Assembly (NCBI GenBank): GCA_965222035.1
Contig: OZ244940.1
Span: 1,775,852 to 1,839,851, forward strand
DNA length: 64,000 bases
Reading direction: 5' to 3'
Source: Candidatus Amphirhobacter sp.
Lineage (GTDB): Bacteria > Pseudomonadota > Gammaproteobacteria > Tethybacterales > Tethybacteraceae
In this document: piece by piece, positions 1,874-62,356 of the stretch
Layout of the letters: every line of letters starts with the position of its first letter
How positions within the stretch are numbered: position 1 is the first letter of the stretch
Made by a program: the position numbers and the translations under genes
The notes under the pieces: generated by a model
Told to the model about the DNA's origin: nothing
What the model saw: the letters and a program-made list of their open reading frames with translations, nothing else
Databases searched by the model: none

Positions 1874-1876
1874 CCC

Positions 1877-5475: not shown

Positions 5476-5484
5476 GTTAGTTCT

Positions 5485-7348: not shown

Positions 7349-7366
7349 GCTGCCAGGAGACCAGCG

Positions 7367-9428: not shown

Positions 9429-9512
9429 GCGGGCGGCTGGGCGCCGCGCGCCGGGGCCGGCGCGCGCGGCGCGGCATCTTGGCCGGCCCAGCAGACATAA
9501 GGAGAGCATGGC

Positions 9513-10280
9513 ATGGAAAATGGCAACCACGAGTACAAGGAGCAGCTGGGAGACCTGCATGAGCTGCAGCGCATCGTGTTCACTGATGTGCAAGATGATG
9601 CGATCAGCCCCCACGAGGATTTCACCTATCCGGTGAGCAACATGATCCGGATGCAGCGCTCGCTGAGCTGGATGCAGCGCTTCGCCGAGGAGGAGGTGGA
9701 CGAGGACATCGGCTTCATCCTGCACTGGATCGCCTTCGAGTCGCTGTACGGCCAGGACGACAACTCGCAGTTCACCACCCGCGTGAACAAGCTCACCGTC
9801 CTGCAGGAGATCGTCAAGTTCTTCGACGAGCTGGAGAAGAGCGAGCGCGACCGCTCCAAGCTGGTGAACGCCGCGATTGAGGTGCTTGACGACATCAACA
9901 GCACCTTCGCGAACCCCTACATCAGCAACGAGGCCTGGGCCGTATACTACAAGGGCTCAACCAAGGCGGGCAGCAAGCACAATCCGTTCGCGAAGGCGGC
10001 GGACAAGTTCAAGCCGTATACGCAGAGCAAGCTGAAGGACCCGCATCAATTCAACAGGGTCATCAAGGACCTGTTCCAGCGGCTGTATCTGGTGCGCAAC
10101 CAGCTGTTCCACGGCAACGCATCCTACAAGCAGGACAAGTCCCCGCAGGTCGTCAGCGCCTTTCACATCCTGCGCAAGCTGATGCCGCTGATCGTCGAGA
10201 TCATGCTGCGGTCGCTGGAGGACAATCTCGGCAGCGAGCGCTGGGGCAAGGTGCCCTATCCGCGCATCAAGGACAAATAA
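9513..10280 (+). CDS. Hypothetical protein with HEPN-like Rx4H motif
   Basis: 255-aa protein, predicted helical. It contains LVRNQLFHG (R at 10095-10097, H at 10110-10112), which matches the HEPN Rx4-6H signature. An AAGGAGAG RBS lies upstream. No partner gene is adjacent. Confidence 0.5.
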   Translation: MENGNHEYKEQLGDLHELQRIVFTDVQDDAISPHEDFTYPVSNMIRMQRSLSWMQRFAEEEVDEDIGFILHWIAFESLYGQDDNSQFTTRVNKLTVLQEIVKFFDELEKSERDRSKLVNAAIEVLDDINSTFANPYISNEAWAVYYKGSTKAGSKHNPFAKAADKFKPYTQSKLKDPHQFNRVIKDLFQRLYLVRNQLFHGNASYKQDKSPQVVSAFHILRKLMPLIVEIMLRSLEDNLGSERWGKVPYPRIKDK

Positions 10281-10283
10281 GAG

Positions 10284-11609
10284 CTAGTCGAGGTCCTGCA
10301 GGATCCGGCCCAGGCGCTGGCCGATCTCGGCCAGGTGCTCGGGCGTAGCAATCAGCGGCGGCGAGACCGCGATGATGTCGCCGGTCACGCGGATTAGCAT
10401 GTCGTGCTGGTGGAAGGCCGCGCAGAGGGCGTCATAGGCCCGGGCGCCGGGCTGCTCGCGCGGCTGCAGCTCGATCGCGCCCATCAGGCCGTAGTTCCTG
10501 ACATCGATGACATGCGGCTGGTCCTTGAGCCCGTGCAGGATGTTGGCGAAGGCGTCTTCGAGCTCGATGGCTTTCTCAAACAGTTTTTCTTCCCGGTAGA
10601 CCCGCTGGGCGGCGAGCGCCGCAGCCATGGCCAGGGGATGGCCGCTGTAAGTGTAGCCGTGGAAGAAGTCGATCGCCTTGCCGGCTGTCGCGGCAAGGAA
10701 CTTGTCATAGATAGAACTGCTGACGGCGACACCGCCGAGCGGTACCGCGGCGCTGTTGACGCCTTTGGCGAAGGTGAGCATATCGGGCTCGATGCCGAAG
10801 CGCTCGGCGGCGGTGCCCTTGCCCACGCGCCCGAAAGCGGTGATGACCTCGTCTAGGATCAGCAGCAGGTTGTGCTCTGAGCAAATGTCCCGGAGACGCT
10901 CGAGATAGCCGCGCGGCGGTACCAGGACGCCGGTTGAGCCTGCGACCGGCTCGACGATGACGGCGGCGATGTGCTCGGCCCCGTGTTCCTTGATCACGTT
11001 GAGCAGGTCATCAGCGAACTCAGCGCCGTGTTCGGGCTGGCCGCGGCTGAAAGCGTTGTGCTCGAGGTCGTGGGTGTCCCGGATGTGGGCGACGCTCAGC
11101 TGGTTGGGATACCACTTCTTGTTGTTCGGGATGCCGCCGACGGAGATGCCGCCGAAGTTGACGCCGTGATAGGCTCTGCTGCGTCCGACCAGCAGGGTGC
11201 GCTCGGCCTCGCCGCGGTGCTGGTGATAGGCGAGGGCGATCTTCAAGGCGGTGTCGACAGCCTCGGATCCTGAATTGGCGAAGAACACCTTGTCGAGGCT
11301 GCCGGGGAAGACCTCGTTGGCCAGCAAGCTAGCGAGCTCGAAAGCAAGCGGATGGCCCATCTGAAAGCCCGGCGCGAAGTCAAGTTCGGCCGCCTGCTGC
11401 TGGACTGCGGCGACGATGGTGGGATGGCTGTGCCCGCAGTGGCAGCACCACAGCCCGGCGGTGCTGTCAAGAATCTTCCGGCCCGCGGGATCGTAGAAAT
11501 ACATGCCCTCGGCGCGCGCGAGCAGCCGGGGTTTGTCCTTGAAGTCCCGGTTGCTGCTGAACGGCATCCAGAGCGCTTCGAGGTCGGGGGCTGGCGGAGG
11601 CGAAGACAT
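10284..11609 (-). CDS. Class III (omega) aminotransferase, beta-alanine-pyruvate transaminase-like
   Basis: Typical aspartate aminotransferase family class III sequence: SGSEAVDTALK, LILDEVITAFGRVG, TFAKG (PLP-binding Lys). The start was chosen at MSSPPP; the ORF extends to 11636. Confidence 0.85.
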   Translation of the reverse strand: MSSPPPAPDLEALWMPFSSNRDFKDKPRLLARAEGMYFYDPAGRKILDSTAGLWCCHCGHSHPTIVAAVQQQAAELDFAPGFQMGHPLAFELASLLANEVFPGSLDKVFFANSGSEAVDTALKIALAYHQHRGEAERTLLVGRSRAYHGVNFGGISVGGIPNNKKWYPNQLSVAHIRDTHDLEHNAFSRGQPEHGAEFADDLLNVIKEHGAEHIAAVIVEPVAGSTGVLVPPRGYLERLRDICSEHNLLLILDEVITAFGRVGKGTAAERFGIEPDMLTFAKGVNSAAVPLGGVAVSSSIYDKFLAATAGKAIDFFHGYTYSGHPLAMAAALAAQRVYREEKLFEKAIELEDAFANILHGLKDQPHVIDVRNYGLMGAIELQPREQPGARAYDALCAAFHQHDMLIRVTGDIIAVSPPLIATPEHLAEIGQRLGRILQDLD

Positions 11610-16060: not shown

Positions 16061-16198
16061 TCACCCAGCCGCAGTGGCGCGGCTTATCAAAACTCGTGAT
16101 GCTCCAGCTCGACTCGGCAGTACGAGACGGCGATGTGCTTGCTCGATTGCAAGCCGGGTCAAGATGGATTGTTTGGAAATCGCATATATAATTCCCTT

Positions 16199-17656
16199 AT
16201 GGATATTGCGTCCCTGACCAGGAACGACATAACTGTTGAGTTGATCGACTCCTTGCTCGACCAGCCCGAGGGTCCCGAGCTCGAGTTCAAGGCGGAAGCT
16301 GGCTTCAACATCGATGAGTTATGCAGGTACTGCTGCGGCTTCGCTAATTCAGACGGAGGCCTGCTTGTATTGGGCGTGTCCGACAAGCGTCCGCGTCAGG
16401 TAGTAGGGACACCTGCCCTCCAAAACCCGGCCAAAGCCGAGGAGGCGCTTCATGCTCACGTTTCTCCTAAACCGCACGTGCAGGTGTTGGAGGTTTTCTA
16501 TCCGGAGGGGCAGAGAGTGGTTGCTGCGCTAATTAAGCGGCATCCACCGGGGGATCCTTGCGCGTATAAATCCGACTTCTGGAAGAGGAAAGGTACCCAG
16601 CTGGTGAAAATGGCCTTTGAGGATTTGAGAGAAATATTTAATGAAGTCCGTCCTCATTGGCTTGAGGCGCTGGTGGTTAAAAATGCGTCTGCCGACGAAA
16701 TTATCGAATTGCTCGACATCGAACAGTTTTACCAGTTGCAGCAGGCAAGAACCAGGCCAGCGCAGGTAGCCCGGATTATGAAAGATCTGCAAGAAGAGGG
16801 CATGATTGTCCCAACAGGTTCTAAAGGCAAGTACAATCTCAATAGGATGGGAGCGCTGTTGCTAGCAAAAAGTATCCGTGAGTGCTCCAAGGACTTGAGA
16901 TCCAAGCGGGTAAGGGTCATCAAATACCAGGGCAACGCCAAGAGTGATTCGGTTTCTTTAGATGAAGATTGGGACAAGGGCTATGCGACGGGCTTCGACG
17001 ATTTGGTGGATCTTGTGTTCAAGCAAATGGAAAATCGCCAAGTCTTCGAAAATGGCACCATTCGCCGGGACCAGGATTTTGTCCCGCAAACAGCGTTGCG
17101 GGAGTTGATTGCTAACGCCATCATCCATCAAGATTTTGAAAACGATCGTCAGCCAGTAGTGGAGATCTTTGACAACAGGGTTATTATAATCAATCCAGGA
17201 ATGTCATTGCTGGATGAAGAGGATATGATTCTCACGCATCAGGCCCGCAACAAGCAAGTTGTGGATGCGATGCGCCTGTTTGGTATTTGCGAGAAGCAGA
17301 GCAGCGGCATCGACAAGGCGATCATAGCTCTCGAAGAGGAGGGGCATGCTCCGGTCGAGTACCGGATGAGCAAGAGTGTCGGTGAGACAGAAGCCTACCT
17401 GCAAGGAGTGAAACCATATGAAGATCTGGGCAGGAAACTGCGAGAGCTTGCCTGCCGCCAGCACTGCGCAATCCGCTATGTGTTGGGAAATTACATGACC
17501 AACGAGTCATTGCGCAACAGATTCAGGCTGGATGAGGACAAGACCAAAGAAATCTCTAAATTGATTCACAAGATGGTGGAAGAAGGCCACATCAAGCCAT
17601 TCGAAGGCAACGGCAATTCCAAGAAATATGCTAGTTATGTTCCTGCCCGGGTTTAG
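16199..17656 (+). CDS. AlbA_2 (Schlafen-like) DNA-binding domain plus HATPase_c_4 domain protein ('RecG-like' putative regulator)
   Basis: The N-terminus has the ELEFK pattern of the AlbA_2 domain. ALRELIANAIIHQDF matches the HATPase_c_4 core. The C-terminus looks like a winged-helix region. The gene is AT-rich. The ORF track starts at 16133; MDIASL at 16199 is preferred. Confidence 0.6.
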   Translation: MDIASLTRNDITVELIDSLLDQPEGPELEFKAEAGFNIDELCRYCCGFANSDGGLLVLGVSDKRPRQVVGTPALQNPAKAEEALHAHVSPKPHVQVLEVFYPEGQRVVAALIKRHPPGDPCAYKSDFWKRKGTQLVKMAFEDLREIFNEVRPHWLEALVVKNASADEIIELLDIEQFYQLQQARTRPAQVARIMKDLQEEGMIVPTGSKGKYNLNRMGALLLAKSIRECSKDLRSKRVRVIKYQGNAKSDSVSLDEDWDKGYATGFDDLVDLVFKQMENRQVFENGTIRRDQDFVPQTALRELIANAIIHQDFENDRQPVVEIFDNRVIIINPGMSLLDEEDMILTHQARNKQVVDAMRLFGICEKQSSGIDKAIIALEEEGHAPVEYRMSKSVGETEAYLQGVKPYEDLGRKLRELACRQHCAIRYVLGNYMTNESLRNRFRLDEDKTKEISKLIHKMVEEGHIKPFEGNGNSKKYASYVPARV

Positions 17657-26755: not shown

Positions 26756-28252
26756 CTAAGCGCCGTCAATCCTATCCATGCCCAAAGCCACGCTAAACTG
26801 CGCGGCTGGAATGACGCGCATGCCAGCGCCCAGCTGGGCGCTGTGCCCGTAACTGGCTTTGGAAGTGCAGTAGAGTTCCGGATTTGCTTTTTTCTTTTTA
26901 CTCCAGTTTCTTGCAAGCAACTGCATTCCACCTGAGACCTGCTCAAAGACCTTGTTGTCATCCTTCCATTTGATCTCAGCAAGCAGCTTGGGCCACCTAT
27001 CTTCGTTCAGGTAGCAAAGGTCTATTTCAAATGGTTGCGCCAATCTTTTGTATTCTAGATAACCGTATTCTTCAAAGGGCCTCTTCTTGTCAAATTGCGC
27101 TAGGGTCGCCGCCTCGACTCTGTTCCCTATGCCATGGCTGTCTTCCTTCACGCTCGCCTTAGCCAAGGAAGGCATCGAGCAGTTCTCTAGAATGAATTTG
27201 CAGTGCGTGTGCCGATGTTTCAGGAACTTCAAGTGCTGGTCAATCTTGCGAAAGCATTTGATGAAGTAGGCGCCCTCTAGAAAACTCAGGTATTTACGCA
27301 AGGTGAAGTCGTTGGTTTCCAACTCTTGTCTAGTTTGCTTCTCGCTGTATTGCGTGGCGTTGTTATTTACTAGCCGCTCGCCAAGGCGGCGGAGCAGATC
27401 CGAGCTGTTGACGCCAAACAAGAGCGGCAATTCATGCTCGACATAGAATGCAACAACGTTTTTCTGAGCACTAGCTCTCAGTTGTTCCCAAGATTTGCAT
27501 TCGCCGTTCTTGTACTCGTAAGCCAATGACGGAAAGGCTCCGAAGTTGATGTAATTGATGAATTCTTGGTTTAGTGCTTCTAGCTCCTCGGATGTCAGTT
27601 GCACATCGAGCATGGCATGGAACCCTTCCATCGGCAAGTTGGAGGGCCAAGCGTGTCTGAATTGCTTCAGGTACTCACAGAACAGAAGGGGTGGCAAGCG
27701 CATTTCGTCGATGCGTCCCAGCCCTGTTTCGCTGCGTTTTTTCTTCAGGATCCTTGCTGAAGATCCCGAGACCGCGCATCTGACAAAGGGTTGGCGATCG
27801 GCGATCACCTTCAAGTCATGTTCCCATTCATTGAAGAACTGGACTTCATCGATGATCAGCAACCAGTCTTGCTCTGGGTTTACGAGCTCCCGCTTGATCA
27901 ATCGTACGATGTCAAGGATGGCCATTCTTCTCAGCCTAGGTTCATCGCCGCTGACGAAGACGATTTGCTTGGGATTGTATTGGCCTGTCGCGATGGCGCT
28001 CCCTATTATCTGCATGAGCATGTGAGTTTTGCCCGTGCGCCGCAAGCCAATGAGAGCGACCACCTGGTCCTTGCGTCCTTGCAGTACTCTCTGCTCGAGA
28101 ATGGGGTAATACAGCCGATGCGGATCCCTGTGCTCCGGTGGCGGATTGCCATCAATCCACCAAGGATTGAGTTCCGTTTTTAGGACACTGACCATTTCTT
28201 CATGCATAAAAATATATTTCCCGTCATATTTTTTGACATTTGATTTTATCAT
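26756..28252 (-). CDS. AAA+ ATPase of the COG1373 / DUF4143 type with C-terminal D...ExK nuclease-like motif (paralog 1)
   Basis: Walker A GLRRTGKTH, Walker B LLIIDEVQ, and C-terminal FEIDLCYL...LAEIKW. The gene is AT-rich. The start at MIKSNV (28252) was chosen by homology of its start context with paralogs; MHEEM at 28207 is the alternative. Confidence 0.75.
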   Translation of the reverse strand: MIKSNVKKYDGKYIFMHEEMVSVLKTELNPWWIDGNPPPEHRDPHRLYYPILEQRVLQGRKDQVVALIGLRRTGKTHMLMQIIGSAIATGQYNPKQIVFVSGDEPRLRRMAILDIVRLIKRELVNPEQDWLLIIDEVQFFNEWEHDLKVIADRQPFVRCAVSGSSARILKKKRSETGLGRIDEMRLPPLLFCEYLKQFRHAWPSNLPMEGFHAMLDVQLTSEELEALNQEFINYINFGAFPSLAYEYKNGECKSWEQLRASAQKNVVAFYVEHELPLLFGVNSSDLLRRLGERLVNNNATQYSEKQTRQELETNDFTLRKYLSFLEGAYFIKCFRKIDQHLKFLKHRHTHCKFILENCSMPSLAKASVKEDSHGIGNRVEAATLAQFDKKRPFEEYGYLEYKRLAQPFEIDLCYLNEDRWPKLLAEIKWKDDNKVFEQVSGGMQLLARNWSKKKKANPELYCTSKASYGHSAQLGAGMRVIPAAQFSVALGMDRIDGA

Positions 28253-28584
28253 ATTGAAAACAAATAATAAAAACATGTATTGTATAAAAAATCCTATCAT
28301 CGCTAGATTTTTTGACATTTTAATATAAATATATGATAATATTGAATTATTCCATGTAGTAACTATTTGGCAGAGAATTGGGACTGTCGCTGCATTTAGA
28401 TCTGGCGGACCGCAGTATGCTAGATTGCTTCCCTATGTTGTTGCTGGCTGAGCGTCCCCGATTTCCCAGTGGAATACCGCTCTGCCCATCTCTTATGGGA
28501 TAAGAAACTGCAAGCTCTTGCAGCGGCGCTGGAGCAGTCAAGTTCGAATCATGCTACTTCTAATGCGTTCAGCCCCTAGGAAAA

Positions 28585-30042
28585 TCAGGACTGTTCATAG
28601 CCAATTCTTATCATGCCTAAGGCTGCGCTGAACTGCGCGGCTGGCAGAATGCGTATGCCTTCGGACAGCTTGGTGCCATCGCCGTAGCTGGTTCGGGAAG
28701 TGCAGTACAGCGCGGGCCTGACTGGATTCTCCTTGCTCCACTTCCGCATTAGACGTTCCATGTTGCCAGACGTTTGTTCAAATGCCCCGGCGCTATCTAG
28801 CCACTTTATCTCAGCTAGAAACTTGGGCCAGCCGTTCGTACCGAGATGGCAAAGATCTATCTCAAACGGCGGCACTGCTCTACCATGCTCAATGTAACCA
28901 TAGTCCTCGAAGAAAGATTTTTCGCTAAACTGAGATAAGGCGGCTGCCTTAACTCGCTTGCCCATGTCCAGGCTATCTGCATCCACAGCGTCCCCGACCA
29001 AGGATGGCATAGAGCAGTTTGCAAGAATGAACCTGCAGTGGGTGTGCCTATGCTTCAAGGTTTTTAGGTTCGGGTCAAACCTTCTGAAACACCTGATGAA
29101 GTAAGCTTCTTCGAGAAAACGCAGGTATCTTCTCAAAGTAATATCATTGGTCTGAAGTTTTTTCTTGATTTTTTGCTGGCCGTATTCCTGGGCATTGTTT
29201 TCAAGCAGCCAGCTTCCCAGGTCGTGTAGCAAGCCCGGGCTGCACGCGCCGAATAAACGAGACAGTCCGGGCTCGACATAGTGCTCAACAATATTCTTGT
29301 GCGCTTCCATCTTCAGCTCGTCCCAAGATGCGCACTGCTCGTCCTGGTATTCGTAGGCAAGCTGAGGAAAGGCGCCGAAATTAATGTAGTTGATGAATTC
29401 ACGGTTCAGTACCTTCAGCTCCTCGTCCGGCAGCCGCGCCTCGAGCATGGCTTGAACATCACTTGTTGGCAAGGCAGCAGGCCAAGCATTCCTGAATTGC
29501 TGCAGAAATTCGCAGAAAAGCAGAGGAGGAAGGTCCATCTCATAGATGCGTCCCAATCCGGTTTCGCTGCTCATGTTTTTCGCGATGGTCGCGGAAGAAC
29601 CCGAGGCCGCGCATCTGATGCGAGGCATGTGATCCGCGATTATCTTCAACTCCTGTCGCCAATTATCGAAGAATTGGACTTCATCGATGAGCAGCAGCCA
29701 GTCTTGCTTTGGGTTCACGATCTTTTGTTCGATCGCCTGTACGATTTCAGTGATGAGCATTTTTCTCAGCCCACCATAGTCGCCGCTGATGAAAACGATT
29801 TGCTGGGGAGCGTACTGGCCTGTCGCGATGGCGTCGCCCACCACCTGCTTGAGTATGTGCGTCTTGCCTGTGCGCCGCAGGCCCATAATGACGACAGCAC
29901 GGCCAACGCGTCCCTGCAGGATTCTCTTTTCGAGAATAGGGTAGTACATCCGATGGGGATGCGCATGTTCCGCTGGCGGCTTGGCATCGCTCCACCAAGG
30001 ATTAAGATAATCCTTCAGAAGCTGAACTGTTTCTTCCTTCAT
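28585..30042 (-). CDS. AAA+ ATPase of the COG1373 / DUF4143 type with C-terminal D...ExK motif (paralog 2)
   Basis: About 60% identical to paralog 1 by eye. It has GLRRTGKTH, LLLIDEVQ and FEIDLCHL...LAEIKW. Start at MKEETV (the listed ORF starts at the TTG at 30051). Confidence 0.75.
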   Translation of the reverse strand: MKEETVQLLKDYLNPWWSDAKPPAEHAHPHRMYYPILEKRILQGRVGRAVVIMGLRRTGKTHILKQVVGDAIATGQYAPQQIVFISGDYGGLRKMLITEIVQAIEQKIVNPKQDWLLLIDEVQFFDNWRQELKIIADHMPRIRCAASGSSATIAKNMSSETGLGRIYEMDLPPLLFCEFLQQFRNAWPAALPTSDVQAMLEARLPDEELKVLNREFINYINFGAFPQLAYEYQDEQCASWDELKMEAHKNIVEHYVEPGLSRLFGACSPGLLHDLGSWLLENNAQEYGQQKIKKKLQTNDITLRRYLRFLEEAYFIRCFRRFDPNLKTLKHRHTHCRFILANCSMPSLVGDAVDADSLDMGKRVKAAALSQFSEKSFFEDYGYIEHGRAVPPFEIDLCHLGTNGWPKFLAEIKWLDSAGAFEQTSGNMERLMRKWSKENPVRPALYCTSRTSYGDGTKLSEGIRILPAAQFSAALGMIRIGYEQS

Positions 30043-30154
30043 AAAAATCAATTATAATTTTTTACACAACATTCTATCATATTGATAAAAAAAGATAAAT
30101 AAATGTTATACAAAAAACCTTACTTTAATTATAATTTTTTATATAACACTATAT

Positions 30155-39380: not shown

Positions 39381-39597
39381 GATTAGCCTTCCTGGTGCAA
39401 TTATAAGAGGCTTGTGGAGCGAAGTACCATCTACCAGAAACAACGTGCGCTTCGCATCCCTGGAATTTCTACCTATAGAAAGATATTTTAGGAATAATCG
39501 ATGATTAATCATAAAAATTTATATATTATTTAAAAATATCAGTAATAATTGGCTATTTTCCCTGTATTTTTATATATTCTTGAAAAATCACAGCAAT

Positions 39598-40815
39598 ATG
39601 ATAGAATTGCCGGGCATGAGCAGTAAAATCATTACTAGACGGAAGAAAGCGGAGGTCCTTCAAAGCCTTAGGATTCACCCGGCTGTTGCCATTCTAGGGC
39701 AGCATCAGGTGGGCAAAACCACGTTGGCGAAAGAAATAGCGGCCGACTTCGATGCCCGCTACTACGACTTCGAAACCGAGGGGGCTAGGCGCATGGTTGA
39801 CCAAGGCCGAATGTTCCAGCAGGTGCAGGAGGCAGAGGGAAACAGGCTAGTAGTGCTGGACGAAGTCCATAATCAGCACGGCTTGTTCTCGGAGTTGAAA
39901 GGGATTATCGACGCTAGCATTTCTCAGGACAAGGACAAAGCCATGGGTATGTTCCTGTTGCTCGATTCCTCGTCGCAGGAGCTGGCGAACAAATCAAATG
40001 AGAGCATGATAGGACGCTTGGGTTATGTGTACCTGGATCCGCTCAATGTCCTGGAAGTGGACAGGTACGACATTGACAAACTATGGCGGCGCGGCGGCCT
40101 GCCAAGTAGTTTTCTACAGAAAAATGATGATGATAGCAATCTTATCCGCCGCAGTATCATTGACCATATGTCGGGACGAGAATTAGCTGACCGCGGCCTG
40201 GGCATCGACTATGGCCAGAGGATGAGACTCATGCATATATTGGCGGATCGCCATGGTGGCATGTTGAATGTGGAGGAGCTGGCCAATGACATCAAAATAA
40301 AGAGGAAGCCGGTTGAGCGTTTTTTGGATTTGCTAGCCGACCTGCGCATAATCAGGCTGCTGCAGCCATATGAGAAGACTGTGACAAAAACACTGGTCAA
40401 GACTCCGAAGTTTTATTATCGAGACAGTGGAATGCTGCATTGGTTCTTGGGCATAATCAAGCAGGAAGAGTTGGAAGTGCATCGCCAATCAGGATATAGT
40501 TGGGAAAGTTTTGTCATCGAAAATATTCTGCGACTGGTGCATCGGCCCGATCTAGCTTGTTTTTATCGTACCAGGGACGGAGCGGAAATTGATTTAGTTC
40601 TCAAAATGCCCGGCGACCAAACCTGGGCTATTGACATCAAAGAAGGCTATCCTAAAATCAGCAGAGGAATGACTGTTTCACTCAATGACTTGAAACCAGA
40701 TCGCAGTTTCGTCGTCCACACGCGCGATGACTTGCCGCCTACCCAAGGCAAGCATGGCATTGAGTTCGTGTCCCTGTTGGGTATATGCCACGAGATTAAC
40801 GCAGCGCTCGAATAG
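39598..40815 (+). CDS. AAA+ ATPase with DUF4143-type C-terminal region and D...DxK motif (distant paralog 4)
   Basis: Walker A GQHQVGKTT, Walker B LVVLDEVH, C-terminal AEIDLVL...AIDIKEG. The start context CAATATGATAGAAT is shared with paralogs 1 and 2. The listed ORF begins at 39580. Confidence 0.7.
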   Translation: MIELPGMSSKIITRRKKAEVLQSLRIHPAVAILGQHQVGKTTLAKEIAADFDARYYDFETEGARRMVDQGRMFQQVQEAEGNRLVVLDEVHNQHGLFSELKGIIDASISQDKDKAMGMFLLLDSSSQELANKSNESMIGRLGYVYLDPLNVLEVDRYDIDKLWRRGGLPSSFLQKNDDDSNLIRRSIIDHMSGRELADRGLGIDYGQRMRLMHILADRHGGMLNVEELANDIKIKRKPVERFLDLLADLRIIRLLQPYEKTVTKTLVKTPKFYYRDSGMLHWFLGIIKQEELEVHRQSGYSWESFVIENILRLVHRPDLACFYRTRDGAEIDLVLKMPGDQTWAIDIKEGYPKISRGMTVSLNDLKPDRSFVVHTRDDLPPTQGKHGIEFVSLLGICHEINAALE

Positions 40816-45592: not shown

Positions 45593-45635
45593 ATATGCTG
45601 TAAATAGGTTAGAATTATCGTACAAATGACCCTCG

Positions 45636-45644
45636 CCCCCCCCC
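45636..45644. repeat. Homopolymeric C9 tract at the left edge of the tRNA-proximal AT-rich island
   Basis: Nine consecutive C residues, read directly, 44 nt after the ptsI stop. Confidence 0.95.
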
Positions 45645-45852
45645 TTCCAAAGGGTAGTTTCTGCCTGCAGTGAGACAGCCCTAGAGCATTCCTCTGCGCT
45701 TCGGTGGCAATCTAGGGACACACCCGATAATCCAAATTACTTAGGGCTTTTTTGTCTGCCCTATTGCTATTTCAGCGTTGCTTTGGGCAGCGCTGGTGCT
45801 GTGGATCAGCACATCTATCCTGTAGCTGGGAAACACCTCAAAGAGGCGATGC

Positions 45853-47334
45853 ATGGCTAAACCAAACTGGGACAACCGCACTCTGTTCCAGGGCGATAAT
45901 CTGGATGTCATGCGAGCTATGAACTCCGAATCAGTTGATCTGATTGCCACCGATCCACCTTTTAACAAAGGGCACGATTTCCATGCTACGCCTGATAGCT
46001 TAGCCGCTGGTTCTTCCTTCCAGGACCGCTGGACCTGGGAGGAGGTTCATGAAGAATGGTTGGAGCAAATCCAGGGAGACAGCCTAAAGCTAACGACAGT
46101 CGTCAATTCCGCCCGTAAAGCTCATTCAGACGGCATGGGAGCTTTCCTATGTTTTCTTAGCGTTCGCCTTATGGCCATGCACAGATTGCTGAAGCCAACA
46201 GGCAGTATTTTCATTCACTGCGACCATAGTGCCGGCCATTACATCAAATCGGCGATGGATGCTGTATTTGGCAGCGACAATTTCGTCAATGAGATTGTGT
46301 GGCGGAGAGCTGAAGCGAAAGGCAGGGCAAAGAGATCCTTCGGCAAAAACCACGATATTATTTTCTGGTATGGCAAATCTAGAAGCCGTATATTCAACCC
46401 TATTTATCGACAGCATGATGCGAGGTATTTGTCAAAATATCGGCATGTGGAAGAGGGAACGATGCGACGCTATCAGCTTGACAATCTAATTTCACCCAAG
46501 CCTAACCCTAAAACGCGCTATGAGTTCCTAGGTGTTACAAAGGACTGGCGCTGGACTAAGGAGCGTATGGAGCAAGGTTTTAAAGATGGCATAGTGGTTC
46601 AAACTAAACCAGGTGCGACAGCTAGGCTTAAGCGCTATCTTGATGAACAAGGTGGGCCCATGATTGACAGTATATGGGATGATGTGAAGGCATTAAACTC
46701 ACAGGCAAATGAGCGTACTGGATATCCCACCCAAAAACCAATAGTGCTTTACAAGCGAATCATAAAAGTTGCCAGCAATCCAGGAGATATAGTGCTTGAT
46801 CCGTTCGCAGGCTGCGCCACTACATGTGTTGCTGCCGAGATGGAACAACGGCAATGGGTGGGAATTGATATTTGGAACAAGATAGAAGAGGTTATCAAAA
46901 GCAGGCTCGAGCAAGAGCGCGAACTAAAAGATCTTGATCCAAATGAGATATTTCTTATTAAGAACTTGCCAGAGCGCACCGATAAGGGAGATGTAGCCGC
47001 CCATTATCTGCGCGTTCGCGAGACTACTAAGAATCCTTGTGACAGGGACAGATTTAAGAACAATAAAGAGAGGAAAGAATTCCTCATTAAGCGAGATGGC
47101 GTTCGGTGCGCAGGTTGCGATAGAATTTTCGATCGCCCTGAATACCTGGAACTAGATCACAATACGCCAAGGTCGAGCGGCGGCTGGGACCACATCAGCA
47201 ACTATGTTTTGTTGTGTCGGCCTTGCAATGGGGCTAAATCCAATACACTTACGCTAGAAGGGCTGCGAAAACGGAACAAGCAGCAAGGTTTCATGGACAG
47301 CCAGCCAGCACCCACTAGTCCCCACCTCTCATAA
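45853..47334 (+). CDS. Beta-class N6A/N4C DNA methyltransferase fused to a C-terminal HNH nuclease domain
   Basis: Motif IV IATDPPFNKG precedes motif I VLDPFAGCATT (beta-class order), and YPTQKP is present. The C-terminus (about 47095-47270) reads CAGC...LELDHNTPRSSGGWDHISNYVLLCRPCNGAKSN, an HNH with two CxxC pairs. The gene is AT-rich. Confidence 0.8.
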   Translation: MAKPNWDNRTLFQGDNLDVMRAMNSESVDLIATDPPFNKGHDFHATPDSLAAGSSFQDRWTWEEVHEEWLEQIQGDSLKLTTVVNSARKAHSDGMGAFLCFLSVRLMAMHRLLKPTGSIFIHCDHSAGHYIKSAMDAVFGSDNFVNEIVWRRAEAKGRAKRSFGKNHDIIFWYGKSRSRIFNPIYRQHDARYLSKYRHVEEGTMRRYQLDNLISPKPNPKTRYEFLGVTKDWRWTKERMEQGFKDGIVVQTKPGATARLKRYLDEQGGPMIDSIWDDVKALNSQANERTGYPTQKPIVLYKRIIKVASNPGDIVLDPFAGCATTCVAAEMEQRQWVGIDIWNKIEEVIKSRLEQERELKDLDPNEIFLIKNLPERTDKGDVAAHYLRVRETTKNPCDRDRFKNNKERKEFLIKRDGVRCAGCDRIFDRPEYLELDHNTPRSSGGWDHISNYVLLCRPCNGAKSNTLTLEGLRKRNKQQGFMDSQPAPTSPHLS

Positions 47335-47344
47335 TAGAACACAA

Positions 47345-48220
47345 ATGAACAAAAAACAAAAAACTGAGGCAACAGCTCCTAACGAAGGCAAAATCGAAGT
47401 GCGGGCTTCAAGCCTGCCAGCGATAGCAAGCTGCGCCCGCTACTACGCAGCCCAGGTGTACGGCAAGGAGGCATCCCAAGCACATCCTGACATCATGGAG
47501 AAGGTTGAAAAACGTGGCGGAGGCTATAAGTCGACCATGGGAGATGCCATGCACAAAATCATGCATCTCAATCTCACACACGAGGATGAGGTGCATAAGG
47601 CGGCTGACGAAGCTTTCGAGCGCAAAATAGAAAAGCCCGGTTTTTTCGATGAGAAGTTTCTCAACACTTCTGACCTGAAAGACACGCTTGTCAAGATGGT
47701 GCAGAATTGCCGGCAGAGCGAGGCTGTGCGCGAGTGGACGACTGAGCGCGAAGGAAATATCTACGAAAAACAGTGGGAGATTGATGATTTGGACCCGGAT
47801 TACATTTTGACGGGGCACATCGATTGCGTTCGCAAGGACGGGATGGTACTTGATTTGAAAATTGGCGTCACTACCGATCAGCAGCTCTACCAAGAGCAGT
47901 TAACTGCTTATCATATGATGGTAGAGCGCCAGGGGCGCGAAAGCCCTGAAATTGCCACTATCGTAAAAATAGCAAGGCCCAAAACTCCCAATTTCAAAGA
48001 AACAACATTGCGTGTCGTACGCTATGAAATACCAATCACAATTCATAAGAAAAGCATCCCCATCTTGGTCAAGAAGGCTGGTGATGTAAAAAGTAATTAT
48101 GATAATTTCAAAGAAGATTTCACAAAGTTGCCTGCCAATCCCGCTTGCCGCGCCTGCCAATGGTGCAAGCTCAAGAACACCTCAGGATGTCCTGAAACTC
48201 AATCAAGGATCATCGAATAG
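47345..48220 (+). CDS. Cas4/RecB-like PD-(D/E)xK nuclease with Cys cluster
   Basis: N-terminal Cys (IASCARYY), GHIDCV, LDLK (DxK), QEQLTAYHMM (QxxxY), and C-terminal CRACQWCKLKNTSGC. It starts 10 nt after the MTase-HNH stop. Confidence 0.7.
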   Translation: MNKKQKTEATAPNEGKIEVRASSLPAIASCARYYAAQVYGKEASQAHPDIMEKVEKRGGGYKSTMGDAMHKIMHLNLTHEDEVHKAADEAFERKIEKPGFFDEKFLNTSDLKDTLVKMVQNCRQSEAVREWTTEREGNIYEKQWEIDDLDPDYILTGHIDCVRKDGMVLDLKIGVTTDQQLYQEQLTAYHMMVERQGRESPEIATIVKIARPKTPNFKETTLRVVRYEIPITIHKKSIPILVKKAGDVKSNYDNFKEDFTKLPANPACRACQWCKLKNTSGCPETQSRIIE

Positions 48221-48565
48221 GATTGATTTTTTGTTTCCAATATCCGTAGAGCACGCCGGCAGAGCGTATTAAGATGATTCAAACCCACGCTGCCTTTGGT
48301 TGTCAGCCCCCCTAGCGCGCAACTGCACTGCTCGCTCGACATCGTGCTAGGCCGCCTGGATTGAGACAAACAAATAATACGATCTTCTCAAAATAAAACG
48401 TAATACGTATTTCCTGAAAAAATAGGAATTCGATATAAATCGCGTAAGATATTGAAATTCAAGTTTTTTCTTATATGCTTTGTTTTGCTAATCCAGGCTA
48501 ACGGTCGCAAATAAGCTGCGAAACGTCAATTCTCATCTCCAAGCAAGACCCGCCAGTTATCGGCT

Positions 48566-49996
48566 TCACCGCCCGCTCCGTATTTTCTCCAGGCCCAGTC
48601 CATAGCCATACTGGGCGGTAGGCACGACGGTCAGGCCGCTTTTGAAAGCTAGCTTGCCCGCATAGACGCTTTGGGAAGTGCAGACCAGGATGTCGGGACG
48701 GCGTTCCTGCTTGCGCCACTCTATTTTGTTGAGCACATATGCCATAGTGCGATCCGCAGCGAGGAATTTATTTTCATCATCATCCCATTTCACTTCCGTA
48801 AGCGACTTCGGCTTGTTGTGAAGATCGATAAGAGCCAAATCGATTTCAAATGTCTGATTATTCTCTTTGAAATGGATGTAGCAGATCCTGTTAGTAAGCC
48901 TCTCTACATGCATTTGGGAGCGCACGAAGGCCTCGAGCTTATGACCTATGCCCTTCTCTGCAAGGTCGATTTCGACACCTTGCGATAATGTGTAGGCGGA
49001 GTTATTGACCAGCGAGTACCGATCTCCCCGATGGTTTGCGTTTTCACGCAGTAGTTCATCGACTTTGGGAGTGCGCGCCACGACATAGGCAGCTACTAAA
49101 TAATTAAGCATGTCTGCTATCTTGTCTCTTTTGACGTTGATGGCTGTGGCTAGGCGACTGACATTGATTTCCAGGCCGGAATGCGCGGTTAAGTGACCCT
49201 GTACCTTGCCTAGATCATTGGCCTCAAACTTGCCGTACAACGGCGCAATTGCTCGCAGGAGGTTGTTATCGAAGATGTCAAGAGTGATTGTTCTGTGACT
49301 CGGCGAACTAGCAAAAACCATTTCTGGATAACTGCCACGATTCAGATAATCCTGGAGATGGTGGTTTAGTTTGGCGATTGCGGCTGGTGATAGCCGGACC
49401 GAGAGGATGTCTTCCAGCTTGGTAGCGTCGCGGAAGGCGGCAGGGCGCTGGCCGATGAAACCCAAATACTCACAGAACAGAATTGGTGGCAGGTAATATT
49501 CCGAGAAGCGCCCCACTCCGGTCTCGCGCCCACGCAGCCGCATGGCGTAGGCTGCCGAGCCCGACGCCATGAATCTGATATCAGGGTACATGTCGGTCAG
49601 CACTTTCAGCTGCGTCTCCCAGTCGTCGCAAGACTGAATTTCGTCATAGACCACCAAGTAGGGCCCCTTAGTTTCCGCCTGCTCCCGGAAGATTTTCAGG
49701 ATATCATAGAGGCAGGAGTGATCCCGGACTGGCAGGGGGTCTATCGTGATGAAGCAGACGTTCTTGGGCTTGAAGCGGCCGGAAGCGATTGCCTCGCCGA
49801 TGATCTGCCGCAGCAAATAGGTCTTGCCCACCCGACGCGGTCCGAGTAGGATCGGCGTGCGGACATAGTCGGTACTGAAAGTTTGCTCGGTGAGGGCAGC
49901 GAACAAAGCGCGCCGATGCTTGGCCTGCACTTCCACAGGCGGCTTGCCGTCGTGCCACCATGGATTGCTTGCCACAATCCATTCACGCATCTTCAT
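48566..49996 (-). CDS. AAA+ ATPase of the COG1373 / DUF4143 type with C-terminal D...ExK motif (paralog 3)
   Basis: The N-terminus has NPWWHDGKPP as in paralogs 1 and 2. It has GPRRVGKTY, LVVYDEIQ and FEIDLALI...LTEVKW. Identity to paralogs 1 and 2 is about one third by eye. Confidence 0.7.
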   Translation of the reverse strand: MKMREWIVASNPWWHDGKPPVEVQAKHRRALFAALTEQTFSTDYVRTPILLGPRRVGKTYLLRQIIGEAIASGRFKPKNVCFITIDPLPVRDHSCLYDILKIFREQAETKGPYLVVYDEIQSCDDWETQLKVLTDMYPDIRFMASGSAAYAMRLRGRETGVGRFSEYYLPPILFCEYLGFIGQRPAAFRDATKLEDILSVRLSPAAIAKLNHHLQDYLNRGSYPEMVFASSPSHRTITLDIFDNNLLRAIAPLYGKFEANDLGKVQGHLTAHSGLEINVSRLATAINVKRDKIADMLNYLVAAYVVARTPKVDELLRENANHRGDRYSLVNNSAYTLSQGVEIDLAEKGIGHKLEAFVRSQMHVERLTNRICYIHFKENNQTFEIDLALIDLHNKPKSLTEVKWDDDENKFLAADRTMAYVLNKIEWRKQERRPDILVCTSQSVYAGKLAFKSGLTVVPTAQYGYGLGLEKIRSGR

Positions 49997-50104
49997 GTTG
50001 TCCGTCGCCTCCTATTGGTTAGGAGATAATTATATCATTTTGTACGAAATTTGATATTATATGTATTTGTTAAGAAGTGCAACATTTAGATATAAAATAT
50101 ATAA

Positions 50105-50128
50105 GATATTGAAAATAAAAGATTAAAT
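50105..50128. promoter_or_regulatory. Conserved AT-rich box upstream of COG1373 paralog 3
   Basis: GATATTGAAAATAAAAGATTAAAT. It is the counterpart of 30155-30177, at a similar distance from the start codon. Confidence 0.4.
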
Positions 50129-50208
50129 CCATATCTCTTATTTTGCCAAATCAAGCTTGCCAGCCGAAAAACGAGCCTGGCTTGCCTGTTTTCCTTGCCG
50201 AAGCAAGG

Positions 50209-50281
50209 CGTCCCCAAGGGGAGTCGAACCCCTGTTGCCGCCGTGAAAGGGCGGTGTCCTAGGCCTCTAGACGATGGGGAC
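50209..50281 (-). tRNA. tRNA-Glu (anticodon UUC), CCA not encoded
   Basis: The reverse complement reads GTCCCCATCGTCTAGAGGCCTAGGACACCGCCCTTTCACGGCGGCAACAGGGGTTCGACTCCCCTTGGGGACG. The cloverleaf is intact, with anticodon loop CTTTCAC. Confidence 0.9.
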
Positions 50282-50289
50282 CCGGAACC

Positions 50290-50365
50290 TGGTGGAGGTA
50301 AGCGGGTTCGAACCGCTGGCCTCTTGTATGCCATACAAGTGCTCTACCAACTGAGCTATACCCCC
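50290..50365 (-). tRNA. tRNA-Ala (anticodon GGC), CCA encoded
   Basis: The reverse complement reads GGGGGTATAGCTCAGTTGGTAGAGCACTTGTATGGCATACAAGAGGCCAGCGGTTCGAACCCGCTTACCTCCACCA. The G3:U70 identity pair is present. Confidence 0.9.
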
Positions 50366-59716: not shown

Positions 59717-60874
59717 ATGGCGAAGATTATTGAAAATCCATTCAACCCTGGTCCGGGGACCGTGCCTTTGTATATTGCTGGCCGGCGGCGGGAACGAAGA
59801 TTGATTGAGCAAGTCCTGCTGAGGGTGTCGGGATCAGGCTCAATCAAGAAAGGGAAACTGCGACCCCTAGCACCAATCAAGATTGTGGGCCCTCGTGGAG
59901 TGGGCAAGACCACGTTGCTGTACGAAGCGAAGAGGATGGCTCGGAGCCAAAACATCCAAGTGCTTCTCCTTTCAGAGCTCAACAGTTTGGCTGACGCCCA
60001 ATTATTGAACGGCCTAATGGGCGAGAAAGCCTACGAACGCCTGTTGGGCAAACTCGCTCGGCGCAAGAGCATGTCGGCTGGTTTTGCGGACATAGCCTGG
60101 GAGCCGGAGGATGTCGGTTTGGAGCAGCTCTTCCGCAAGAAAATGGCTAGGCGCCCGCTGCTGTTGGCGCTCGACGAGTTGATGCACTATGAGCCGCAGG
60201 CGTTGAGCGGGCTCTTGCGGGTATGCCATACATTGATTGGGGACAAACAGCCGCTAGCGGTGATGATGGCAGGTACGCCAGAGTCCGACCAGCTGTTGGA
60301 TCAGCTGCCAGCGAGATTCGCCGAGGACGTCATTGATATTGACATCAACGGCCTGAGCGACGATGAGACACTAGATGCCTTGGCCCGACCCTTCGAAATG
60401 CTTGGTGCGAAGGCTACATCCGCGGCGCTGCGACGCATGGTTGAGCTGAGCGACCACTATCCATATTTCATTCAGATTGTTGGTTATGAGGTTTGGAAGG
60501 CCATGTCGGCGACTGGCAAGAGTAAAGCAGGCTTGGCGTTGGTCAAGCAGGCTGAGCCTGCCATTAATATGAGGAGGGAACATCTCTACAGCAAGATCCA
60601 CGATTGGGTAATCAACAATGGTTTGCGCAAGCATGCTGAGCGAGCCGAGGAAATTCTCAAGATGAACCAAGGCAAGGTTGATTATGTCGCGATGCTCTCG
60701 GGCTTAGCTGGCAAAAAAATGAATGTGTTCGGTCAAGAGCATATCGAGATTTTCAACCAGTTGCTGGATCGGGGTCTTATCTGGACGGAGGGCGATGAGG
60801 TAGAAGCGGGCCTCCCGTCATTTTTTGACTACTGCCATCAGATTGTTGAGGAAGCGAAGCAAGAAAAATTGTAA
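59717..60874 (+). CDS. ORC/STAND-like P-loop ATPase (AAA_16 / ATPase_2-like), copy 1
   Basis: N-terminal NPFNPG...YIAGRRRE, Walker A GPRGVGKTTLL, Walker B LLLALDELMH, and a likely winged-helix C-terminus. GC is intermediate. Confidence 0.65.
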   Translation: MAKIIENPFNPGPGTVPLYIAGRRRERRLIEQVLLRVSGSGSIKKGKLRPLAPIKIVGPRGVGKTTLLYEAKRMARSQNIQVLLLSELNSLADAQLLNGLMGEKAYERLLGKLARRKSMSAGFADIAWEPEDVGLEQLFRKKMARRPLLLALDELMHYEPQALSGLLRVCHTLIGDKQPLAVMMAGTPESDQLLDQLPARFAEDVIDIDINGLSDDETLDALARPFEMLGAKATSAALRRMVELSDHYPYFIQIVGYEVWKAMSATGKSKAGLALVKQAEPAINMRREHLYSKIHDWVINNGLRKHAERAEEILKMNQGKVDYVAMLSGLAGKKMNVFGQEHIEIFNQLLDRGLIWTEGDEVEAGLPSFFDYCHQIVEEAKQEKL

Positions 60875-61198: not shown

Positions 61199-62356
61199 AT
61201 GGCGAAGACTGTCAAAAACCCATTCAATCCTGGCACGGCGACTCAGCCCGTGTATGTGGCTGGTCGGTTGAAAGAGAGGGAACTCATCGAGGAAACCTTG
61301 TTGGGGATAACGGACTTGGATCCAGCTGATGAGACGCAGCCAGGCCCGCTTGTACCTCTCAAGATTGTGGGTCCTCGCGGCGTGGGCAAAACCACATTGC
61401 TTCTTGAAGCGAAGAAGTTGGCCAAGAGTCACAAAATCCAGGTGCTGCACCTCTCGGAGCTCAACAGTTTGGCTGACGCTAAGCTATTGACCGGCCTAGT
61501 GGGCGAGAAAGCCAAGGAACGCCTGCTGAACAAACTCTCCCGGATCAAAGGCATATCGGCTGGTCCCGTGGGCGTAGCCTGGGAGCCGGAGCAAATCGGT
61601 TTGGAGGATTCCTTCCGCAAGAAAATGGCGGAGCAGCCGTTGCTGTTGCTGCTTGATGAGCTGATGCACTATGAGCCCAAGGCGCTGAGCGGGCTGTTGC
61701 GAATATGCCAGCAATTGATTGGTGACAGAGAGCCGCTGGCGGTGATAATGGCAGGTACACCGCAGACTGACCAGGTGCTAGGCCAGCTGAAAGCGAGCTT
61801 CATTGAGAGAGTCAATAAGATTTACATCAACGCCTTTGACGATGATGAGACCCTGGACGCCTTGGCCCGTCCCTTCAAACTGCACAAGGCCAAGGTTGCG
61901 CCTGCGGCACTGGCTCGCATGACGAAGTTGCCCGATAACTATCCGTTTTTCATCCAGATTGTTGGCCGTGAGGTTTGGAAAGCTATGTCGGCAACTGGCA
62001 AGCGCGAAGTAAGCTTGGCGCTAGTCAAGCAGACTGAGCCTGCCATTAAAGAGAAACGGGAAAGTTTCTACGAAGAGATTCATGCAAAGATAATCAGTGC
62101 TTCTTTGCTCAAGCATGCGGAACGAGCCATGGAAATCCTAGGAAAGAACCAGGGCAAGGTCAAGCGTGTGACGATGATCTCGGGTTTGGCGGGCAAGAAA
62201 AAGAACGTGTTCGGCCCAGAGCATGTGGAAATTTTCAACAAGTTGATGGATCGGGGTTTCATCTGGATGCGGCGCGGTCGGGTGGAAGCGGGCATTCCAT
62301 CATTTTTTGACTACTGTCAGCAGGACGCTAAGGAAGTGGGGCACGAAGCAATTTAA
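61199..62356 (+). CDS. ORC/STAND-like P-loop ATPase, copy 2
   Basis: Same length (385 aa) and colinear with copy 1, about 60-65% aa identity by eye. Same Walker A (GPRGVGKTTLL) and Walker B (LLLLLDELMH). Confidence 0.65.
   Translation: MAKTVKNPFNPGTATQPVYVAGRLKERELIEETLLGITDLDPADETQPGPLVPLKIVGPRGVGKTTLLLEAKKLAKSHKIQVLHLSELNSLADAKLLTGLVGEKAKERLLNKLSRIKGISAGPVGVAWEPEQIGLEDSFRKKMAEQPLLLLLDELMHYEPKALSGLLRICQQLIGDREPLAVIMAGTPQTDQVLGQLKASFIERVNKIYINAFDDDETLDALARPFKLHKAKVAPAALARMTKLPDNYPFFIQIVGREVWKAMSATGKREVSLALVKQTEPAIKEKRESFYEEIHAKIISASLLKHAERAMEILGKNQGKVKRVTMISGLAGKKKNVFGPEHVEIFNKLMDRGFIWMRRGRVEAGIPSFFDYCQQDAKEVGHEAI

Follow-up and report, generated by a model that had tools for sequence, protein, structure and literature searches.

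The 64,000-nucleotide stretch of contig OZ244940.1 from Candidatus Amphirhobacter sp. that was analyzed here (called the window below) carries two adjacent genes, g1 and g2. The g1 protein joins a beta-class DNA methyltransferase (MTase) to an HNH nuclease domain at the C terminus in one polypeptide, and g2 encodes a predicted nuclease of the Cas4/Dna2/AddB type. Judging from its sequence, g1 is probably a new domain architecture (beta-class MTase plus C-terminal HNH) for single-chain restriction-modification (R-M), borne on transposons and accompanied here by an unusual optional partner. The reading that we favor, with confidence and doubt in about equal measure, is that g1 is a mobile single-chain R-M enzyme, that g2 is a phage-derived exonuclease serving as an optional accessory, and that the pair arrived as one cassette low in guanine-plus-cytosine (GC) content.

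Domain organization and predicted fold of g1

A preliminary description of the locus had reported two open reading frames (ORFs) of 493 and 291 amino acids (aa) with a 10-nt spacing, which was confirmed together with their coordinates, and had read the first as a complete beta-class MTase followed by an HNH nuclease. This domain assignment is borne out by two Pfam matches above their cutoffs and by the presence of all of the motifs then cited, which are invariant in a family alignment. Residues 28 to 349 of g1 match N6_N4_Mtase (PF01555; E = 1.9e-42; 146.1 bits against a cutoff of 26.7) over profile positions 1 to 220 of 221, and residues 419 to 464 match HNH (PF01844; E = 1.8e-8; 34.9 bits against a cutoff of 21.4). 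Motif IV (DPPF, residues 34 to 37) precedes motif I (DPFAGCATT, residues 316 to 324), which is the beta-class order, and a hypervariable region lies between them; DPPF alone does not tell the target base (N6-A or N4-C). In the family alignment of 30 sequences, the YPTQKP motif is invariant, as are P292, Q294, K295, P296, D316, P317, F318, G320, C321, A322, T323, and T324 of the C-terminal MTase core. The HNH catalytic residues, whose possible degeneracy in a family alignment had been raised earlier, proved invariant in the same sequences (C419xxC422, D435-H436, N450, and C455xxC458-N459). The HNH domain also shows subthreshold matches to the HNH domains of IscB and Cas9d.

Conservation is at least 0.8 in the catalytic cores, in contrast to 0.26 to 0.32, with 12 to 35% gaps, at residues 180 to 257. 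The central region containing these residues is predicted to be the target-recognition domain (TRD), since its position matches that of the TRD in Type III Mod subunits and beta-class MTases. The AlphaFold model of g1 has a predicted local distance difference test (pLDDT) score of 80, and its closest structural match is the Mod subunit of EcoP15I (4zcf; 5e-18), followed by the Mod subunit 6k0w, M.BceJIV, and CcrM, with M.MboIIA also among the matches. Mod subunits are also the best full-length matches in the sequence search, in which 6k0w covers residues 7 to 331. The modeled fold of g1 is that of a recognition-and-modification subunit. No solved structure joining such an MTase to an HNH domain was found by the structure search or the sequence search of the PDB, and no description of the MTase-HNH architecture was found in the open-access literature. 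Proteins of the g1 family are annotated publicly (NCBI) as plain "DNA methyltransferase."

Size, spread, and conservation of the MTase-HNH family

The best 120 protein matches to g1 are all full-length MTase-HNH fusions of 430 to 593 aa with about 50% identity, and the best match outside its own species is 63% identical. When a single genome was scanned for each species, at least 597 g1-related loci were found. The best 80 of these, picked like the other family samples by similarity to g1, are almost all full-length fusions and come from about nine phyla, including Chloroflexota, Gamma- and Alphaproteobacteria, Poribacteria, Nitrospira, Acidobacteriota, Bacteroidota, and Latescibacterota, together with a Nitrosopumilus archaeon. 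The sequences thus indicate that the family has moved across the line dividing the bacterial and archaeal domains. The record and sample names, read with background knowledge, suggest that most carriers are metagenome-assembled genomes (MAGs) of marine-sponge symbionts, and the reported enrichment of sponge symbionts in R-M systems and transposases fits this distribution (PMC7848895). Genomes contain one to three MTase-HNH copies, some of them in tandem. In sequenced plasmids, none of the 322 matches to g1 extends through the HNH core. The archaeal copy (L037, positions 7980 to 9542; MAG of Nitrosopumilus sp., OZ242041.1) is a full-length MTase-HNH protein of 520 aa that is 45% identical to g1.

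A census of 217 family members found both active sites intact in 202, whereas 9 keep the MTase with an HNH domain that is lost or defective. No genuine member with a dead MTase and a live HNH domain was found in the census; two apparent cases were rejected, one (L057) being a truncated ORF call and the other (L031) a frameshifted pseudogene. This asymmetry, in which the HNH domain is lost but never the MTase alone, is what R-M systems predict. Motif IV (D34, P35, P36, and F37) is kept in 214 to 215 of the 217 members, and all 207 HNH-bearing members have H436 and N450, while 204 of them have N459 and 206 to 207 have the four cysteines. Such conservation points to strong purifying selection on both active sites.

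The recognition domain behaves differently from the catalytic parts. The tandem copies in L052 are 97% identical in the N-terminal core, 100% in the C-terminal core, and 99% in the HNH domain but only 21% in the TRD. Likewise, L076 and L080, from the same genome, are 89% identical in the cores, 92% in the HNH domain, and 16% in the TRD, and the pattern is reversed between L076 and L078 of that genome (73% in the N-terminal core, 94% in the C-terminal core, 41% in the HNH domain, and 97% in the TRD). These comparisons indicate that the predicted specificity domain is swapped between paralogues as a cassette by modular recombination. Because the catalytic sites are strictly conserved while the recognition domain turns over as a module, the pattern is of the R-M type. 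Multiple MTase-HNH paralogues occur in L052 (6521 to 9626), L083 (6547 to 9320), L087 (8001 to 10907), and the genome OZ251531.1 (L076, L078, and L080). In addition, L053 and L054 (CBDCJO010000002.1, Latescibacterota) hold two identically scoring 394-aa MTases without an HNH domain; a separate HNH-like ORF lies about 1.3 kb downstream, and IS1595 transposases occur nearby. The element may here have been split or have decayed.

Carriage by IS1595-type transposons

When the neighbors of the MTase-HNH genes were clustered across 79 loci, the sole recurrent partner was an IS1595-family transposase (DDE_Tnp_IS1595 plus zinc ribbon), which directly adjoins the MTase-HNH gene in 17 of them. Terminal inverted repeats (TIRs) of 24 to 50 nt, starting GGGAATT..., enclose the transposase and the MTase-HNH gene in elements that span 2.75 to 4.07 kb (Table 1). 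The TIRs around both genes and the 8-bp target duplications therefore identify the MTase-HNH gene as a passenger of small IS1595-type transposons. These elements may be "transporter" insertion sequences (IS) of the ISNwi1 subgroup of IS1595, whose ends start with GGnnATTAT. Relatives of g1 thus lie inside IS1595 elements with passengers, but the copy in the window has neither an IS1595 transposase nor an inverted-repeat remnant. Both the IS1595 carriage and the cassette shuffling of the specificity domain had been missed in the preliminary description.

g2 and its linkage to the MTase-HNH gene

The g2 protein itself has no Pfam match at an E value of 0.1 or below, and no Pfam domain is recorded for P0121, which is 98% identical to it; the six more distant homologues of the close family (P0122 to P0127; 41 to 51% identity) all carry PF12705 (PDDEXK_1). 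Residues D160, D170-x-K172, Q185xxxY189, and C30/C271/C274/C282 do not vary within the close family; in 30 remote relatives, 20 of which match phrog_69 ("exonuclease"), the catalytic residues are invariant or nearly so and the cysteines are also kept. The four cysteines are predicted from these alignments to form a 4Fe-4S site. The Cas4/AddB-type arrangement that had been proposed for g2 is therefore upheld for the D/DxK and QxxxY motifs and these cysteines but not for the first cysteine of "CRAC" (C268), which is not conserved. With Cas4, AddB, Dna2, and the phage "Cas4-like" exonucleases (PF12705 and phrog_69), g2 shares D...D-x-K, QxxxY, and a set of cysteines of which one is N-terminal and three are C-terminal. 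Its AlphaFold model (pLDDT, 75, with a low-confidence C terminus) matches the Dna2 nuclease domain, Cas4 SSO0001, RecE, and AdnAB, although the Foldseek values (Dna2, 6.8e-4; Cas4, 2.5e-3) come with template modeling scores of only 0.38 to 0.58. A sequence search of g2 against the PDB returned only alcohol dehydrogenase matches, which were rejected as spurious. PADLOC weakly matches g2 to Aga_Cas4-like_Nuc (2.7e-6) and DruK (2e-5). CRISPR Cas4 proteins are a different case, as g2 scores 13.1 bits against TIGR00372, whose cutoff is 65, and the window contains no cas genes and no repeat array.

Both genes have a GC content of 0.477 in flanks of about 0.68, in agreement with the earlier view that they are foreign to the backbone. 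The arrangement is kept in the sister-strain contigs L006 to L008 at 97 to 98% identity; an apparent truncation of g2 in L006 was rejected as a gene-calling artifact, as the full ORF is intact. The identical GC content, the 10-nt gap, and the retention of the arrangement in sister strains show that g1 and g2 entered the genome together as one low-GC cassette.

The nuclease family is rare: a profile search of 1.84 billion representative proteins found 7 relatives of g2 at an E value of 1e-30 or below and 192 at 1e-3 or below. Its closest relatives are mostly exonucleases of phage replication modules that follow DNA polymerase A. Contexts obtained through exact-protein look-ups fall into eight lineages. 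Four of these are in phage contigs (L001, L003 to L005, L104/L105, and L106), where the g2-like gene lies right after the DNA polymerase A gene and before DNMK, with TerL nearby; three are in cellular DNA beside an MTase-HNH gene (the window with its sister strains, L002, and L009); and the contig of the remaining one (L107) is too short to place. The three g1-g2 pairs are 48 to 63% identical in g1 and 39 to 51% identical in g2, and the two identity rankings disagree. The pairs carry different TRDs, and the gene order is inverted in L009. All three pairs stand alone as islets that lack phage genes, and the islet of L009 is also low in GC. Because three of the four cellular occurrences of so rare a nuclease family adjoin a gene of which a genome has only one to three copies, chance linkage is very unlikely.

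Seen from the side of the MTase-HNH family, g1 behaves as a standalone unit. Searching with the family profile, no g2 relative was found within 8 kb of the MTase-HNH gene in any of 80 loci of other species, and the sole conserved neighbor of that gene is a transposase. The two-gene operon proposed earlier as the unit is thus not supported for the family, in view of the at least 597 self-contained MTase-HNH loci and the absence of g2 from all 80 of these neighborhoods; conservation of the pair across genomes holds for three divergent lineages (the window, L002, and L009) and for none of the other 80 species. Pattern scans found no g2 relative in JGI metagenome contigs. In L108, where the g1 relative is 58% identical to g1, a 309-aa unrelated protein occupies the position of g2 inside a transposon. 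This protein was considered as a divergent g2 and rejected, with an hhalign probability of 0.4%, no Pfam or PADLOC match, and no homologue in the other loci.

Two of these settings have further features. The uncultured phages (L001, L003 to L005, and L104 to L106) share the order sigma-70-like factor ... DNA_pol_A, Cas4-like exonuclease, (DUF7220), DNMK, (DUF5906), TerL; their GC content ranges from 0.45 to 0.67, and they have no close cultured relatives, the best being Bordetella phages at 27% identity. The islet of L002 (663 to 5515) is rich in methylases and holds the MTase-HNH gene, the g2-like nuclease gene, a gene for a T5orf172 protein, and a third N6_N4 MTase gene on the opposite strand. 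It also holds a closely related MTase gene without an HNH domain, the first 35 nt of which are shared with 86% identity.

Comparison with known systems

No named R-M or defense type had been assigned to the pair before, and this still stands. PADLOC matches g1 only to the models MTase_II, MTase_III (down to 2e-38), and orphan MTase, and g2 has only the weak matches given above; no system in PADLOC-DB v2.0.0 contains both g1 and g2. Type IIC, IIG, and IIL enzymes (MmeI, BpuSI, and Eco57I) resemble g1 in having nuclease and MTase domains in one polypeptide with one recognition module; their specificity evolves by TRD change, as in g1, and some of them work without a separate MTase. In the review by Pingoud et al., Type IIC enzymes combine an N-terminal PD-(D/E)XK domain with a gamma-class MTase (NPPY/F/W), with the exception of BtgZI, in which an alpha-class MTase is joined to a C-terminal PD-(D/Q)XK domain, showing that the order with an N-terminal MTase can work (PMC4081073). 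g1 departs from the canonical Type IIC architecture in being beta-class (DPPF) with a C-terminal HNH domain, an architecture that is not listed in that review (PMC4081073).

Type III Mod subunits (EcoP15I and Helicobacter pylori), the best structural and full-length sequence matches to g1, are likewise beta-class with a central TRD. However, no Res subunit (superfamily 2 helicase plus PD-(D/E)xK) is found in the cassette or its flanks, and g2, at 291 aa, has no ATPase domain. Unlike in Type III systems, the nuclease of g1 is an HNH domain fused in cis, and the unit contains no ATPase. Exchange of TRD alleles is known for mod genes. Type II and IIS restriction endonucleases of the HNH type (KpnI, MboII, MnlI, HpyAV, Hpy99I, and PacI) have a beta-beta-alpha-Me site with Cys4 zinc, as does g1, and the presence of M.MboIIA, a separate beta-class MTase, among the fold matches makes g1 resemble a fusion of such an MTase/nuclease pair. 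HNH restriction enzymes are listed only as separate proteins (PMC4081073). In the known HNH R-M systems, the restriction and modification enzymes are separate and the endonuclease has its own recognition domain, whereas none is evident for the HNH domain of g1, which presumably borrows the TRD of the MTase for recognition. Phage ParB-MTase fusions are comparable to g1 in that a DNA methyltransferase of a mobile element is joined to a nuclease-type domain (PMC3592412); they differ in having a ParB-like N-terminal domain, in being phage-encoded, and in the nonspecific nicking reported for them, whereas the g1 family is essentially absent from cultured phages.

Proposed mechanism and alternative explanations

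In the favored reading, the Mod-like beta-class MTase would read a short DNA motif through the central TRD and methylate the host's own sites, and the HNH domain tethered at the C terminus would nick or cut DNA with unmethylated sites, so that restriction would depend on the methylation state. Because beta-class MTases act as dimers, the two HNH domains of an MTase dimer could yield a double-strand break. The g2 protein may be an iron-sulfur exonuclease of the Cas4 family with 5'-3' polarity, which arose in phage replication modules and was recruited in a small sublineage; if it cooperates with g1, it would resect the breaks made by HNH, and invading DNA would be destroyed rather than repaired, an endonuclease-plus-exonuclease pairing that can be likened to T7 gp3/gp6. 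A bolder version, which we advance tentatively as possible rather than probable, is that MTase-HNH is a previously unrecognized class of single-polypeptide R-M that rides IS1595 across phyla and into archaea in sponge microbiomes while swapping TRD cassettes, and that the Cas4-like exonuclease is a true second component here, giving a two-gene "cut-and-chew" defense.

Several points weigh against the favored reading. Four of the eight g2 lineages lie in phages, without an MTase-HNH gene in the retrieved DNA, and the linkage rests on three lineages that may all derive from one ancestral pair. Because g2 is absent from nearly all family loci and is replaced in L108, it is not required and could be hitchhiking. 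The missing class with a dead MTase and a live HNH domain is weak evidence, the census sequences having been chosen by their likeness to the full-length query. A single-chain enzyme that combines the two activities must somehow be kept from self-cleavage, and g1 shows no evident means of doing so. Restriction activity in the family is predicted from its sequences.

The phage contexts of g2 bear on the suggestion, offered in outline as the alternative in the preliminary description (a remnant phage methylase/exonuclease module), that the two genes are the leftover early or replication region of a phage, with a protective methylase, a recombination or replication exonuclease, and no role in host defense. 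This would account for the four phage lineages with their order DNA_pol_A, g2-like gene, (DUF7220), DNMK ... TerL, for the matches of remote g2 relatives to PHROG exonuclease families, and for the 41 to 43% identity that the MTase portion of g1 shows to Streptomyces and Mycobacterium phage methylases; the low GC content of the cassette, its closeness to tRNAs, and the extra methylases and T5orf172 gene of L002 also agree with it. We nevertheless consider it unlikely. No integrase, att repeats, or phage structural or other replication genes are found around the window pair or the pair in L009, and a bare two-gene islet recurs in three unrelated chromosomes (the window, L002, and L009), in none of which it sits in a prophage module. 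In cultured phage genomes, none of the 81 matches to g1 extends through the HNH core, and the 2.9 million contigs of IMG/VR include only about three full-length fusions, all of them distant, and, in the pattern scan, no g2 relative. Moreover, the active sites of both genes are intact, and the genes are 97 to 98% conserved between sister strains. In another reading, g1 is a standalone mobile R-M-like gene, and g2 is a DNA-metabolism gene that was transferred on the same vehicle and does not cooperate with it. The lack of g2 at 80 of 80 other MTase-HNH loci, the unrelated gene at its position in the L108 transposon, and the working of g2-family proteins in phages without MTase-HNH are all in line with such independent cargo, which we judge unlikely because three of the four cellular contexts of a very rare family (7 representatives at an E value of 1e-30 or below in 1.84 billion) lie directly beside a gene found only one to three times per genome, and because this linkage persists over identities of 39 to 63%, different TRDs, and an inverted gene order, which is the usual signature of functional coupling.

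The mobility of the family raises the further question of whether the module serves its own spread, with the HNH domain acting in homing-type cleavage or as an aid to transposition, the MTase protecting the carrier, g2 resecting 5' ends for gene conversion, and no antiphage function. HNH is the classic domain of homing endonucleases, several copies occur in some genomes, the family spans phyla and domains, and the gene is tightly coupled to transposases. The IS1595 DDE transposase, with its inverted repeats and 8-bp duplications, is, however, enough to explain mobility; the insertion contexts across the 79 loci all differ, with no conserved homing target; the shuffling of TRD cassettes is better accounted for by selection for recognition specificity than by a fixed homing site; and most copies have neither a transposase nor g2 beside them, so that we find this very unlikely. 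Finally, g1 could be an MTase with an epigenetic or housekeeping role, in which the HNH domain is only a zinc module that binds DNA, with g2 as a repair nuclease. The public annotation as simply "DNA methyltransferase" and the presence of CcrM among the fold matches agree with this, and MTases of the beta-class CcrM type bear noncatalytic C-terminal DNA-binding domains. A purely structural zinc module would have no need of the near-invariant catalytic His and metal-binding Asn residues (207/207, 207/207, and 204/207), and g1 is foreign, mobile, patchy, multicopy, and shuffled in its TRD, unlike a conserved housekeeping MTase; we regard this explanation as very improbable.

If the fusion is active, a new architecture (beta-class MTase plus HNH) is added to the Type IIC repertoire, and its natural TRD variants, which number in the hundreds, could be a source of new specificities and of compact, programmable nickases. 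The small IS1595 transposons would then be a concrete route by which R-M spreads across phyla, and even domains, in dense communities such as sponge microbiomes, and the linkage of g2 would represent a phage replication exonuclease domesticated into host defense. Defense inventories may undercount these genes, which annotation pipelines label as plain or orphan methyltransferases.

Genomic surroundings of the pair

The features of the locus and of the related transposons are collected in Table 1.

Table 1. Features of the g1-g2 locus in the window and of IS1595-type elements carrying MTase-HNH genes
Feature	Position	Strand	Description
g1	45853..47334	+	493-aa fusion of beta-class N6A/N4C DNA methyltransferase and HNH nuclease
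g1 N-terminal catalytic core, aa 1-150	45853..46302	+	Motif IV DPPF; conservation 0.6-0.83 across 84 family members
g1 central hypervariable region, aa ~151-285	46303..46707	+	Predicted TRD
g1 C-terminal MTase core, aa 286-350	46708..46902	+	YPTQKP and AdoMet (S-adenosylmethionine) motif I VLDPFAGCATT; conservation 0.84
g1 HNH (beta-beta-alpha-Me) domain, aa ~416-470	47098..47262	+	C419xxC422, D435-H436, N450, C455xxC458, N459
g1 stop to g2 start spacer	47335..47344	+	10 nt; genes form an operon
g2	47345..48220	+	291-aa Cas4/Dna2/AddB-type PD-(D/E)xK nuclease, predicted 4-Cys iron-sulfur site
Upstream intergenic region	45593..45852	+	GC content falls here
Sigma-70-like promoter match	45704-45731		Candidate only; such matches no commoner than in shuffled sequence
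AAA_14 + DUF4143 (COG1373-type) ATPase	48566..49996	-	Pfam; PADLOC candidate defense family PDC-S01, 3e-31
tRNA-Glu(UUC) + tRNA-Ala(GGC)	50207-50365	-	ARAGORN and Rfam; right edge of low-GC region
L071 element	6946-9699		2754-bp unit; perfect 8-bp target duplication TTTCTTTT
L023 element	7790-10677		2888 bp; perfect 8-bp target duplication AAAACATG
L108 element	about 1767-5838		~4.07 kb; perfect 8-bp target duplication TTTCCAAA; two further passenger genes of no known kind
L072 element	6780-9666		Near-perfect target duplication
L010 element	7508-10445		No target duplication

Promoter and terminator scans of the locus gave matches no better than in shuffled sequence, and the Rfam scan matched only the tRNAs and no other regulatory element. 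The earlier observation that no specificity subunit or helicase accompanies the genes holds for the ORFs near the pair, among which no integrase is found either, and the repeat-array scan found no CRISPR array. The tRNA-Glu and tRNA-Ala genes, described before as lying beside the pair, are present, but the ATPase gene intervenes and there is no sign of integration in the form of an att-like repeat or an integrase. No att-like repeat flanks g1-g2, and the island's left edge has no tRNA-derived repeat. Att sites at the tRNAs were therefore rejected, as the sole notable direct repeat brackets the ATPase gene instead. The COG1373-type identity proposed for that ATPase was confirmed by Pfam (AAA_14 and DUF4143). 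The repeat around it is an imperfect, AT-rich direct repeat of 34 nt (48429 to 48462 and 50086 to 50119; 76% identity), and the GC content of the ATPase gene, 0.534, is unlike that of g1 and g2. Because of this bracketing repeat and the different GC content, we suggest that the ATPase gene is a separate islet, inserted separately and lying outside the g1-g2 unit.

The surroundings of the pair are defense-like, with the PDC-S01-type ATPase adjoining it and several other defense-like islets in the window. Four AAA_14 (COG1373-type) genes match PDC-S01, at 26756 to 28318 (-), 28585 to 30051 (-), 39580 to 40815 (+), and 48566 to 49996 (-), with DUF4143 found by Pfam only in those starting at 39580 and 48566. 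Two more paralogous AAA ATPase genes lie at 59717 to 60874 (+) and 61199 to 62356 (+). Each of these ATPase genes is a single-gene low-GC islet (0.49 to 0.54) in a backbone of 68% GC, which is an unusual density for 64 kb. A low-GC gene at 16133 to 17656 (+) encodes Schlafen/AlbA_2 and HATPase_c_4 domains and has a weak pAgo-associated match in PADLOC (1.9e-9). At the start of the window, positions 32 to 1873 (+) encode the C-terminal portion of an R-M enzyme of Type ISP, with the Type_ISP_C specificity domain (5e-81) and an Eco57I-type MTase segment; this fragment has a GC content of 0.46 and runs off the window start.

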